Below are positions 16,128 to 21,759 of a DNA stretch of 33,512 nt, piece by piece; within the stretch, counting starts at the first letter, position 1, and the number at the start of each line of letters is the position of its first letter. A program made the position numbers and the translations under genes. The stretch is from a virus. The notes below the pieces were generated by a model. It did no database searches. It saw only the letters and a program-made list of their open reading frames with translations, and had not been told where the DNA came from. The stretch lies in IMG/VR virus record IMGVR_UViG_3300021509_000009; one strand, written 5' to 3'.

Positions 16128-16466
16128 TCACCTTTTTAATATCTTTACCATATTTATGCATTCTATTACTCTTTCTGCTATACTATTTGTTATACCGTAT
16201 TTTGCTAAAAGATATATCTTTCTCTGTGTACTATTTCTTAATTTTTTATATTCTTCATCTTTTTCTACTTCTTTTGCAATTTTTCTTATTTCATCCAATT
16301 CGTCAAGCTCTGTTTTCAATAGATTCTCACACTCTTCATAAAATACATAGAAAATATCTGGATTGTGCGGTACTATCGAAATTCGCTTGACTACTACTTC
16401 TTTATTTTCTTCTCGCTTCAGAAAAGCATTTACGCTATCTATTCTCTCAAATCTTTTTATTTTCAT
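16128..16466 (-). CDS. Hypothetical protein (true start 16466)
   Basis: AGGAGG RBS upstream of ATG 16466. The longer track ORF runs through the tRNA-like gene. Confidence 0.65.
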   Translation of the reverse strand: MKIKRFERIDSVNAFLKREENKEVVVKRISIVPHNPDIFYVFYEECENLLKTELDELDEIRKIAKEVEKDEEYKKLRNSTQRKIYLLAKYGITNSIAERVIECINMVKILKR

Positions 16467-16489
16467 ATTTTTATTCCTCCTATTAAGGA

Positions 16490-16617
16490 TGGACGGAGCA
16501 GGAGTCGAACCTGCATTCCCGAACAGATTTATCTCTCTACTCGTCGAAACAAATGTAATATACCGATTTAATTTAAAATGTCTTAGTGTTCGGGTCCTAC
16601 CATTAGATGATCCGTCC
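16490..16617 (-). tRNA. tRNA-like gene with a 63-nt segment in place of the 7-nt anticodon loop; identity undetermined; CCA not encoded
   Basis: Perfect acceptor stem GGACGGA/TCCGTCC plus A73. D arm ATCT-AATGGTA-GGAC. Anticodon stem CGAAC/GTTCG. 5-nt variable region. T arm GCAGG-TTCGACT-CCTGC. Confidence 0.8.
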
Positions 16618-16645
16618 ATAAACAAAGAAAAAAAATATAATAATT

Positions 16646-17080
16646 TCATATTATCTTATTAATATATGTACTTAGAGCTTCTCTATGTTCTTCTTTATCA
16701 AGATATGCAAATCTTCTATGTAATTCTTTGTTAATAAAGACTACATGTGTGTCATCAATATGATGCGCTTCTGTGTTTGGTTGTTTTTCATTCAGAGGTA
16801 TGAATCCGTATCCCCGCTTCCATGCACTCCACTTTGAAAAAATATAAGGGGGCTTTATAACCCCCAATTGAATAAGACCGATTAGCTCATCAATTCCCCG
16901 CTTTCTTCGTCTCCTCCCTCTTTTCTTTAGGACGGACTTATTGCCCAGTCCAGGGCGAGTCCTTCTATACCCGCCTTTATTGGCAGGAAGTTTAGACGGG
17001 GAGGCTCCCGCCTTACTTCCCTCGCCCTCGGTGAATTTATAATTTTCACCTTCCTCTATAATATACTGTGATGTTACCAT
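16646..17080 (-). CDS. Small HNH-like (His-Me finger) protein; start uncertain
   Basis: C-terminal half GFIPLNEK...EAHHIDDTHVVFINKELH. The N-terminal part overlaps a strongly structured GC-rich region. Confidence 0.5.
   Translation of the reverse strand: MVTSQYIIEEGENYKFTEGEGSKAGASPSKLPANKGGYRRTRPGLGNKSVLKKRGRRRRKRGIDELIGLIQLGVIKPPYIFSKWSAWKRGYGFIPLNEKQPNTEAHHIDDTHVVFINKELHRRFAYLDKEEHREALSTYINKII
16837..17050 (-). ncRNA. Candidate structured non-coding RNA (nested stems plus serial hairpins, ends in hairpin + T tract)
   Basis: Stems on the minus strand: GGTGAA/TTCACC; AGGGCGAG/CTCGCCCT enclosing GGAAGT/ACTTCC and AGGCGGG/CCCGTCT (G-U only on the minus strand); GGACT/AGTCC; AATTGA/TCAATT; GGGGG/CCCCC followed by TTATATTTTTT. 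Confidence 0.55.
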
Positions 17081-17112
17081 TTTTTTATTACAATTCATTT
17101 GATTAGTGTTAC

Positions 17113-17682
17113 TCAGTCTTTTATAGGTCTTTCTGTTATCCATTGCCATCTACCTCCTCTTTCAATCTGTTCCCACAATTTCGCTTGTTCAACTAATGAT
17201 AACCTCAAAAAATTATCCCTGTGCGCCTCCATCTTTTCCCTATCCTTTATCACTTTTGCCTTCTGATTTATTTCACTTGCCTTCATATTTGAATTTATAG
17301 CAAGATTGTATAGACGAACCATTAATAACCTATACGGTGACTTTGGATTTTTTTGTTTTTTTAGCCATCTACGAATTTTTTGTAGTTCCTTTTGTTTTTC
17401 TTCTCTTTCTCTTAGTTCATTAAATCTATGTGACTGACTGTTATAATACCGTATTCGTTTATTATATGTATTTTTTCCGTTATTCTGAATAATATCTAAT
17501 GGTGGTTGATAACCTGTTACATGCCAAAGCGCATAATAAGCTGAGATTCTCATTCTTCGTTGTAAATCTCTTTCATCTTTGATCGGATCTTCCCATAGCA
17601 CCTTAAGGTTTCCCAGATCAGCAACTATCCCCATGTACTTACGTTCAACTTCTTTTCTTATCATCTTTATATGCCTCCTCAT
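17113..17682 (-). CDS. Basic hypothetical protein
   Basis: 189 aa, K/R-rich. Confidence 0.65.
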   Translation of the reverse strand: MRRHIKMIRKEVERKYMGIVADLGNLKVLWEDPIKDERDLQRRMRISAYYALWHVTGYQPPLDIIQNNGKNTYNKRIRYYNSQSHRFNELREREEKQKELQKIRRWLKKQKNPKSPYRLLMVRLYNLAINSNMKASEINQKAKVIKDREKMEAHRDNFLRLSLVEQAKLWEQIERGGRWQWITERPIKD

Positions 17683-18369: not shown

Positions 18370-18388
18370 CTTAAAAAGGATGTGGTCA
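18370..18388 (-). promoter_or_regulatory. Promoter: TGACCACAT box + TATA (TTTTTAAG)
   Basis: Same architecture at four gene starts. Confidence 0.7.
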
Positions 18389-18572
18389 TTATAGTACTTA
18401 TTATTGATACTTACTTTGGGTCAGATATTTCTGGACAGGTCTTTATAGATATTGTCATTTAACAAAATACCTATTATTAGATTTGAATTTTTCTTTTAGT
18501 TTTGAAGCCAAAAAAGCTATGACTGGTATAATGAATAATATAAAATAAATGATAAGTAATTGAAATATTTGG

Positions 18573-18869: not shown

Positions 18870-18888
18870 TATATAAAGGATGTGGTCA
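18870..18888 (-). promoter_or_regulatory. Promoter: TGACCACAT box + TATA (TTTATATA)
   Basis: Box lies 2 nt before the TATA, upstream of ATG 18839. Confidence 0.7.
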
Positions 18889-19474
18889 CTTAAGTACTTA
18901 CCTCTAATCCTTACCCTGTGTATCATCTTCTCTTCTTATATTATATATTTATTATATAATTCCCTCTCTTTTATATTATTATAATATTCCTTTTTATCAT
19001 TGTTAGTAATATAGTTACCATAGTTCTCATAATTTATGTGTTTATACTCCTTATATATTTGTTGTTTTCTGTTGTTATAGTTATGTATGTTTTATAAGAT
19101 AAACACCATCTACAACATTTATGCCCTTCTTTTTAAAAATAAAACCTTAATAACCAATAAAATTAAAATTAAAACTTTAATATCAATCATAAGAAATATT
19201 ATCCTTTTTTATCGCTTTTCATATCATCAACAAACAAATCTATAATCTTTTCATACTAATCATAAATGATGTTATCCTTATCATCCCTGTGTTACTGGAG
19301 TTAATATTTAAGAATTACATGAAGAGGGATAACAAGAGATAATCGGGAGATTGAAATTTTTAATACTAATTATGGAAGTGGGGAATTGCATCAATGACTA
19401 CCTAAAAATTATATCATAATTTGCATTTTGAGCGTGTTCATTGCAATTTTTTTGAGTGGGGTAATATAAAAGTG

Positions 19475-21432: not shown

Positions 21433-21759
21433 CTATTTTATTATTTTTTTTCCGCAATACCGGCACTGGAGAACCTCTTTTGGCTCTCCGGTTTTTCCGT
21501 CATACACTGTTTGCCGCCACTCAAAGCAGTGGCGACCTTTTGAGCAGCGGTACTTCTGCGCAAGCAATGCTTTCATGCACCAGCGCGCCGCAGCGATATC
21601 GGAAACAGAGCGTTCTCGCTGCATTCTTTTGAACTCGTTGCGTATTTCGCTGAGTTCTTCATCACTCAGCTCGCTGTATGCTTTCTTAATCTTCTTCATT
21701 TCGTTTTCGATCTCTTCATCACTTATGACATCTTTTTCTTTGCTCATTTCATTTATCAT
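21433..21759 (-). CDS. Hypothetical protein with C-terminal Cys/His motifs
   Basis: CSKGRHC...CRYC. GGAG RBS. Confidence 0.65.
   Translation of the reverse strand: MINEMSKEKDVISDEEIENEMKKIKKAYSELSDEELSEIRNEFKRMQRERSVSDIAAARWCMKALLAQKYRCSKGRHCFEWRQTVYDGKTGEPKEVLQCRYCGKKIIK

Follow-up and report, generated by a model that had tools for sequence, protein, structure and literature searches.

We have analysed a stretch of 33,512 nucleotides from a virus (IMG/VR record IMGVR_UViG_3300021509_000009; "the window" in what follows always means this whole stretch), and in particular a GC-rich element that lies on the minus strand within an open reading frame (ORF) of 167 codons. We conclude with high confidence that the element is a conserved structure of the sense-strand RNA, that it is under selection, and that it is overprinted by the reading frame. 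A previous sequence-only reading of the window had proposed a structured RNA on this strand, and the proposal is supported by covariation, by the asymmetry of the wobble changes and by suppressed synonymous change. Searched over the window at the gathering score, Rfam has no match to the fold, and at E <= 10 the region 16400-17400 gave only chance-level matches overlapping it (E 0.36-8.5), neither HEARO nor Y RNA being among them. The fold had not been recognised as any known riboswitch or ribozyme, and the Rfam 15 search agrees in giving no family. It is a new RNA family.

The behaviour of the base pairs carries this conclusion. Pairing was counted over the 42 pairs of the structure obtained with RNAalifold from 43 sequences, and standard pairs fill 99.9% of the 1806 cells, with 21 of the 42 pairs variable. 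Two-sided changes occur in 8 pairs. Shuffling gives 1.7 (none of 500 shuffles reaches 8), and registers slid by 1-3 columns gave one double-changed pair each. All of the one-sided changes lead to G-U or U-G and never to A-C, and U-G is the majority state at two pairs. On the complementary strand the same changes would produce A-C mismatches; it is therefore the minus (messenger-sense) strand that folds, and the G-U argument by which the minus strand had been chosen is borne out. A covariance model was built from 32 sequences from which the divergent clade L071-L078 had been kept out, and it recovered this clade at E ~1e-33. These loci add compensatory pairs in helices P4 and P1 (Table 1), raising the total to 9 with pairing still at 99.9%. 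Some of the compensatory events entail radical residue swaps in the encoded peptide, such as GAG/AAG (E/K) together with CGC/TGC (R/C), or KAGASPS versus MVKASSP. Whether homologues keep the peptide or the pairings had been named beforehand as one possible refutation: the pairings are kept and the peptide varies.

The codons provide the second line of evidence. A start at the ATG at 17143 is likely, with GGAGGT standing 9 nt before it, and codons 1-12 overlap the end of the upstream ORF (17113-17682). The clusters that match the ORF do so over its full length, with identities of 58-99%. The RNA had been described as overlapping and preceding the ORF; it does overlap it, but it does not precede it and sits wholly inside. 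A total of 64 loci were fetched and 45 distinct coding sequences entered the codon analysis, in which the pairwise proportion of synonymous differences (pS, Nei-Gojobori) was 0.11 for residues 1-86 versus 0.48 for residues 87-167, and 0.54 in codons 106-167. The ratio of codons 13-86 to codons 106-167 was 0.21 (95% confidence interval 0.14-0.30, codon bootstrap). The ratio of nonsynonymous to synonymous proportions (pN/pS) ran the other way, 0.59 in residues 1-86 versus 0.17 in residues 87-167. Entropies at codon positions 1/2/3 were 0.29/0.17/0.19 for residues 1-33, 0.16/0.13/0.29 for residues 34-105 and 0.34/0.21/0.74 for residues 106-167. The synonymous drop is local, the upstream ORF and the C-terminal domain having ordinary diversity, and every indel in the region is a multiple of three. 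In the fold region, selection is on base pairs rather than on the peptide.

Overlapping genes were considered as the source of the synonymous constraint and rejected (codons 1-12, shared with the upstream ORF, excepted), as the other frames are closed: in most relatives stops interrupt the +1 and +2 sense frames and every antisense frame. An internal start at codon 95 was also discarded. Most sequences have ATG at this position, but seven have TTG, ACG or GAG, and since it is not always a start codon the folded domain can be reached only from the upstream start. The frame is kept open because the folded, HNH-like C-terminal domain cannot be translated by any other route. Separately, a run of seven A (17080-17086, minus strand, AAA AAA) is invariant in 43 of 43 sequences, though AAG is common for Lys elsewhere in the gene; it could belong to an A/T box of promoter type situated ~20 nt ahead of the fold. 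Programmed frameshifting at this run or at the T run was rejected, there being no open alternative frame and no canonical in-frame heptamer. Three members do carry frameshifts (L063 at ~1790-1830, L078 at ~560-600, and protein P0041), two of them by changes in the length of the C5 or T run and one in P4, and these variants may be assembly errors, pseudogenes or slippage-prone sites.

Composition and folding energy are in line with the above. The GC-rich island that had been noticed in an AT-rich sequence was confirmed at 16908-17027, with 56.7% G+C in a window of 31.8% (z = 4.2). G+C at third codon positions (GC3) is 0.42 in residues 34-105 versus 0.26 in residues 106-167, and because it too is raised the island is not explained by amino-acid composition alone. 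When folding energy was checked against dinucleotide shuffles, the minus strand of 16837-17050 came out more stable than the controls, at -76.9 kcal/mol versus -61.4 +/- 4.7 (z = -3.3, 1 of 200 as good); the plus strand gave z = -2.2. The island shares the top G+C peak of the window with a second one at 21503-21622, also of 56.7%, which corresponds to the Cys/Arg-rich, zinc-ribbon-like C-terminal part of the ORF 21433-21759 (minus strand).

RNAalifold recovers from the 43 sequences hairpin Pa, the helices P1, P2, P3 and P4, the junction strand, P5 and the G5/C5 hairpin (Table 1). Together they occupy the sense strand of codons ~30-105, within the first 60% of the gene. The supported fold spans ~120 nt, with ~95 nt more to the G5/C5 hairpin, and the covariance model finds one copy per virus record, without a second one in the window or in three virus records. 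The nested stems of 8, 6 and 7 bp described from the window alone are present and conserved (P3 being 5-7 bp), as are three further hairpins, now Pa, P4 and P5, and the final hairpin with its T tract. Other details of that description did not survive the comparison with relatives. What had been taken for a mutually exclusive CCTGCC/GGCGGG fold is simply P4 lengthened by two bases shared with P2; CAATA(A) occurs in the loops of the small clade of the window only, most relatives having the loops AAGA and UAGU; and the TATA-like TATATTATA at ~17056-17064 is specific to that clade, with TCTCTATTGG there in most relatives. The apical loop of P3, AAGCCUCC, is complementary to GGAGG. One GGAGG is found 45 nt upstream of this loop, at 17053-17057 (a single base of it differs in the window, and it is otherwise invariant); another stands before the start codon. 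The loop might form a pseudoknot with the former or, alternatively, bind Shine-Dalgarno sequences. AGCCTCC shows no over-representation across the window. Since the loop, the junction strand and the purine-rich tract are invariant, pairings that involve them offer no covariation signal.

Table 1. Positions of the RNA element, its parts and the adjoining features in the window.
Feature	Position	Strand	Remarks
167-codon ORF	16646-17149	-	38 protein clusters, 64+ loci; contains the whole RNA element
Zone of suppressed synonymous change	16886-17143 (codons ~1-86)	-	Encodes the basic N-terminal extension, predicted disordered
Hairpin Pa	17030-17050	-	6 bp, variable 9-nt loop; 100% paired, 1 compensatory pair and G-U variants
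Three-way junction domain P1/P2-P3/P4	16952-17028	-	7 of 9 compensatory pairs; 1 of 1296 cells unpaired
P1, 8 bp	17021-17028 with 16952-16959	-	Encloses P2
P2, 6 bp, GGAAGU/ACUUCC	17015-17020 with 16986-16991	-	Invariant; stacked on P3
P3, 5-7 bp	17008-17012 with 16995-16999	-	
P3 apical loop AAGCCUCC	17000-17007	-	Columns invariant, conserved at synonymous sites
P4, 4-7 bp	16972-16985	-	Follows P2/P3
Junction single strand GUAUAGAAGRAC, 12 nt	after P4, inside P1	-	Conserved
Hairpin P5, bulged, 7 bp	16930-16951	-	Compensatory G-C to A-U pair; U-G, C-G and U-A variants
Purine-rich tract	16894-16929	-	Codes KKRGRRRRKRG; low synonymous variation; no supported pairing
Terminator-like hairpin GGGGG-N8-CCCCC and U-rich tail	16836-16865 (stem 16848-16865)	-	Codons 95-104
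Folded C-terminal domain, 84 aa	16649-16900	-	Motif N-x8-HH-x9-(N/D)-x3-H; ordinary coding signature
tRNA-like gene	16487-16618	-	28 nt after the ORF stop; 54-63 nt insert at the anticodon-loop position; outside the fold, part of the conserved module

Across all aligned sequences the G5/C5 stem is unchanged and its loop is freely variable at synonymous sites, and as a predicted terminator the hairpin and its T tract are kept in all clades. In the window the G+C-rich stem stands directly before a U-rich run (TTATATTTTTT / TTATATTTTT). The tail reads UUAUAUUUUUU in most sequences and UUUUAUUUAUU in the clade bearing Ro60 (see below), and it is U-rich in every clade although the Tyr, Ile and Phe codons could vary. 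This is the strongest terminator-like site in 20 kb, and the gene ends of the virus are without such hairpins. The hairpin and U tract would appear to be a selected transcription stop or a U-tail binding site.

The protein encoded across the fold has two very different parts. In the AlphaFold model made with the family alignment, residues 1-86 have a predicted local distance difference test (pLDDT) below 50; the full-length model, at 49.7, was set aside when similar folds were searched for. A disordered basic extension that overprints the RNA element is predicted for the N-terminal 85 residues. This N-terminus is matched by family fragments only, and in an exhaustive profile search ~170 distant proteins match profile positions 84-165 only. 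Modelled with an alignment of distant relatives, the last 84 residues reach a pLDDT of 92.4 and form helix, helix, two strands, helix, helix (predicted elements E43-47, E52-57 and H58-63), with the invariant HH on strand 1 and the invariant H on the helix. The invariant N, HH and H have an HNH-like spacing without cysteines. Among the 85 aligned members, 16 contain NUMOD3, by which homing endonucleases bind DNA, and others contain zinc ribbons. Pfam gave no family for the ORF at E <= 0.1 nor for the C-terminal domain at E <= 0.01, and for this domain neither a PDB sequence search nor Foldseek against PDB gave a significant match. VIA-align reached Z scores of only 2.3-2.6, which is noise level, with matches including the HNH region of IscB (9liq_A, Z 2.4) and SciA of phage T5; one Atlas cluster (PF01844 in 33% of its members) scored 0.87 and is a lead only. 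The label HNH-like that the ORF had been given is thus plausible from the motif spacing and the NUMOD3 relatives and, having no Pfam HNH match, unproven. The nearest short mini-HNH relative (P0043, locus L065) is on a contig without a G+C island, its protein has no N-terminal extension, and it has no such RNA. The RNA and the extension are confined to this virus family and are an innovation of it, the relatives of the C-terminal domain being without them. In L065 a second small gene, whose HNH motif is of the classical form (HH...CANCH..H), precedes P0043 (positions 1-243 and 484-804), which suggests that such nuclease genes cluster.

As to what the RNA does, the explanation that we favour, tentatively and at slightly less than an even chance, is that the fold acts as a discrete RNA ending at the hairpin and U tract. 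Transcription would arrive from upstream, either by operon read-through or from an internal start near 17057. Termination at the conserved hairpin and U tract would release a stable structured RNA of 0.2-0.3 kb, and read-through past this point would yield the full messenger RNA. The likely contact sites would be the anti-Shine-Dalgarno-like AAGCCUCC and the 12-nt junction strand, which might engage the internal GGAGG (as a pseudoknot), the ribosome-binding sites of targets, or a protein.

Several considerations weigh against this explanation and against the structural evidence beneath it. Archaeal termination requires a U tract alone, which makes the role of the hairpin uncertain, and in the clade bearing Ro60 the tail is U4AU3AU2 and not U6. 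No conserved promoter was found before the fold, TATATTATA being clade-specific and the virus's own TGACCACAT-TATA motif being absent upstream of the fold. Translating ribosomes would unfold the structure. The sequences are ~90% identical and the compensatory events fall on few branches, and the low synonymous divergence could come partly from gene conversion around a homing-endonuclease gene. A naive scan of all columns is uninformative, as shared ancestry alone makes many column pairs look compatible, and for the same reason pseudoknots are beyond the reach of such a scan; the evidential weight rests on the contiguous helices and on the slid-register and held-out controls. Lastly, covariation does not separate RNA from single-stranded DNA of the same strand.

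The strongest competitor, which we nevertheless consider rather unlikely, is a cis-acting element of the messenger RNA with no functional separate RNA, restraining a potentially toxic HNH-like domain by attenuation of transcription at the hairpin and U tract, by ribosome slowing or by pairing of the CCUCC loop with the GGAGG of the ribosome-binding site. The position is appropriate, as the start codon and the presumed catalytic domain flank the structure, the terminator-like site falls where the folded domain begins, and the P3 loop is complementary to the GGAGGT before the ATG. Free-standing homing-endonuclease genes are often restrained by RNA hairpins and terminators, I-TevI of T4 being an example. 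However, L005 and L007 are without the upstream GGAGG and yet keep the loop, a three-way junction of 130 nt with a conserved junction strand exceeds what occlusion needs, and the nearest mini-HNH genes do without the fold.

A third explanation comes from the neighbourhood. The tRNA-like gene that had been seen next to the element is indeed there, and almost every locus has it. Conserved in it are the acceptor, D and T arms and an anticodon stem of 5-6 bp, and position 33 is A, not U. The insert between the stem halves measures 28-77 nt across loci and has at least four unrelated forms, the long ones holding a GC hairpin (GAAGCCUCY...GGAGGU). ARAGORN calls a different anticodon in each insert form and, run without introns, no tRNA; Rfam tRNA does not match the copy in the window. 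In two clades a cassette stands between the HNH-like ORF and the tRNA-like element, composed of an intron-bearing tRNA (Rfam tRNA, 45.9 bits in L071) and then a gene for a Ro60 homologue. This protein (TROVE and vWA_Ro60, 506-587 aa) is encoded on the strand of the ORF, 0.2-0.3 kb beyond its downstream end, at 2215-3507 in L071 (clade L071-L078) and at 862-2391 of the minus strand in L079 (L001/L079), and it is also present in L005, L008 and L011; in L001 the tRNA-like element comes after the Ro60 gene. A Ro60 gene within ~4 kb on the same strand is found in the two clades L001/L005/L008/L011 and L071-L078, and in neither the window nor the other loci that reach far enough downstream.

The RNA could therefore be imagined as a Y-RNA-like partner of Ro60, alone or with the tRNA-like RNA, a scaffold that, in the manner of bacterial Y RNAs, links another factor to the Ro60 ring, which in some lineages is encoded by the virus; we regard this as improbable. 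Besides the two clades in which the Ro60 gene is so close and is flanked by the tRNA and the tRNA-like element, it is favoured by the U-rich tail of the RNA and by what is known of bacterial and phage Y RNAs, whose genes share the strand of Ro60 at a distance of no more than 4 kb and which mimic tRNA, at least one having a tRNA-like domain (PMC4201824). Ro60 is also reported from the 'Nidhogg' viruses of Asgard archaea, in a study that names no RNA partner for it (bioRxiv 10.1101/2021.07.29.454249). On the other side, the window and most relatives keep the fold without Ro60 nearby, and there is none in G002 or G003. The known Ro60-binding motifs are GNCGAAN0-1G in bacteria and GGUCCGA in vertebrates (PMC4201824), and neither is conserved in the module: a regular expression for the Ro60 motif run over 31 loci found GACGAAG in the window and L004 only, plus one match in L008 just upstream of the ORF start. 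No Y RNA of Rfam matches, the fold is larger than known Y RNAs (80-130 nt) and has no evident stem joining its 5' and 3' ends, and the tRNA-like element is a better candidate than the fold for an analogue of YrlA, if there is any. A wider form of the idea, that the fold and the tRNA-like RNA are the missing RNA half of a viral Ro60 ribonucleoprotein, kept even where the partner is of the host or distal, is a similarly long shot. If true, it would be the first Y-RNA-type module outside bacteria and animals, and an unusual one in being overprinted by a nuclease-like gene.

The remaining explanations fare worse. A structure of the single-stranded DNA of the minus strand, acting as a priming or replication signal or as a recombination site for the surrounding replication module (prim-pol, RecA-like, XPF-like and Cas4-like genes), is very improbable. 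Covariation with G-T tolerance is equally compatible with it and the element does lie within a block of replication and repair genes, but the hairpin and the conserved T-rich run, all in the transcription sense, are an RNA-type signal, and two pairs have U-G as their majority state although a G-T pair in DNA has little stability at high temperature. We give hardly any credence to the absence of a nucleic-acid function, in which the G+C would derive from a peptide rich in Gly, Arg, Pro and Ala and the low divergence from recent, homing-driven gene conversion. The peptide is indeed rich in G, R, K and P, overall diversity is low and homing brings co-conversion of flanks, but GC3 is raised too, the 9 compensatory pairs stand against the single one of the slid registers with every one-sided change wobble-compatible, and pN/pS is near 0.6-0.8 with radical swaps; the pair counts and the held-out clade largely refute this reading.

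A guide or scaffold RNA of the OMEGA/HEARO kind, with which the sequence-only reading had drawn an analogy, would make the mini HNH-like protein part of an RNA-guided nuclease that holds the RNA by its arginine-rich N-terminus, and is most implausible: every member does have a structured RNA linked to a nuclease-like ORF, the arginine-rich tract exists and there is the weak structural echo of IscB, but that echo is at noise level, the 167-aa protein has a single small beta-beta-alpha domain with no RuvC, bridge helix or PLMP domain, Rfam gave no HEARO match at E <= 10, the alignment of 43 loci has no hypervariable guide-like segment beside the scaffold, the DNA-binding motif NUMOD3 that occurs in the domain's relatives is typical for homing endonucleases guided by protein, and the mini-HNH relative P0043 has no such RNA.

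The minus strand of the window has a block of replication and repair genes (primase-polymerase-like, RecA/UvsX-like, ERCC4/XPF with helix-hairpin-helix domains, Cas4-like exonuclease and Mre11-like phosphoesterase), and further genes encode methyltransferases, a PAPS-reductase-like protein, glycosyltransferases and a disaggregatase-related beta-helix protein. Judging from this gene content the window belongs to an uncultured virus, probably of an archaeon. Megablast of the window against phage records gave no match, and all the relatives found are metagenome and IMG/VR virus contigs. A protein search of genome contigs found no relative of the 167-codon ORF, and an exact 25-mer from the 3' half of the tRNA-like gene had no match and gave no pointer to a host. 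Two intergenic, promoter-like sites of the minus strand, at 18373-18400 and 18873-18900, have in common AGTACT-N4-5-TGACCACATCCTTT with an A/T box after it, ~40 nt upstream of the ATG. The HNH-like gene is without such a site and is probably transcribed within an operon starting near 18380. We also observed that runs of T6 or longer are scarce on the sense strand of the genes of the window (6 vs ~12 expected from composition), and that A6 runs are not (42 vs ~41 expected); the T6 deficit fits an avoidance of oligo-T termination signals within genes.

Set beside known systems, the element is an unusual variant of the dual-function RNAs (SgrS/SgrT, RNAIII/hld, SR1/SR1P), and it is also close to the small RNAs that are 5' fragments made by premature termination. 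It has in common with them a region selected both as RNA structure and as reading frame, a predicted 3' end formed by a hairpin and U tract, and an apical loop rich in C that could pair with ribosome-binding sites. In these RNAs, however, the peptide is small and usually outside the main stems, whereas here, in what is probably an archaeal virus, 75 of the 167 codons cross a three-way junction and a terminator-like hairpin. The Y RNAs and YrlA that associate with Ro60 (PMC4201824) are similar with regard to the two sister clades, where the RNA precedes a same-strand Ro60 gene by less than 1 kb, has tRNA-like RNAs beside it and would end in a U-rich 3' tail; the viral fold differs in having no Ro60-binding motif, terminal stem or Rfam match, in being about twice the size, in lying inside an ORF, and in its presence in many relatives without Ro60. 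The HEARO/OMEGA RNAs of IscB (a protein of ~400-500 aa whose RuvC is split by the HNH) are alike only in the linkage of a structured RNA to an HNH-like ORF, the viral element failing on protein architecture, RNA family match and guide segment.

Free-standing genes of HNH/NUMOD homing endonucleases are found in the tRNA regions of phages, such as segB of T4 and the HNH genes of T5. The gene described here resembles them as a small nuclease-like gene with NUMOD3 relatives, directly upstream of tRNA or tRNA-like genes, with patchy neighbours and an adjacent cassette insertion. It differs from them in having neither a Pfam HNH match nor Cys zinc ligands, and a disordered basic stretch, whose coding sequence is at once the RNA fold, takes the place of the N-terminal DNA-binding module. 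The signature itself, a local drop of the synonymous rate with covarying stems in an ORF, is that of the synonymous-constraint elements of RNA viruses, but those serve the replication or packaging of an RNA genome and this one sits in a double-stranded DNA virus.

To our knowledge, RNA structures supported by covariation are almost unknown in viruses of archaea and of vent microbes, and folds that cross a protein-coding frame of a double-stranded DNA virus are, as far as we know, rare anywhere. The element is a clean case of overprinting, in which an RNA fold and a disordered peptide occupy a common 250 nt and selection is visibly for the RNA, and it adds a new family to covariance-model libraries. 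It is also a warning for annotation, since a 'conserved hypothetical protein' can owe its conservation to RNA. With its tRNA-like RNAs and, in some lineages, Ro60, the module provides a testable entry to RNA-based virus-host conflict in uncultured systems.

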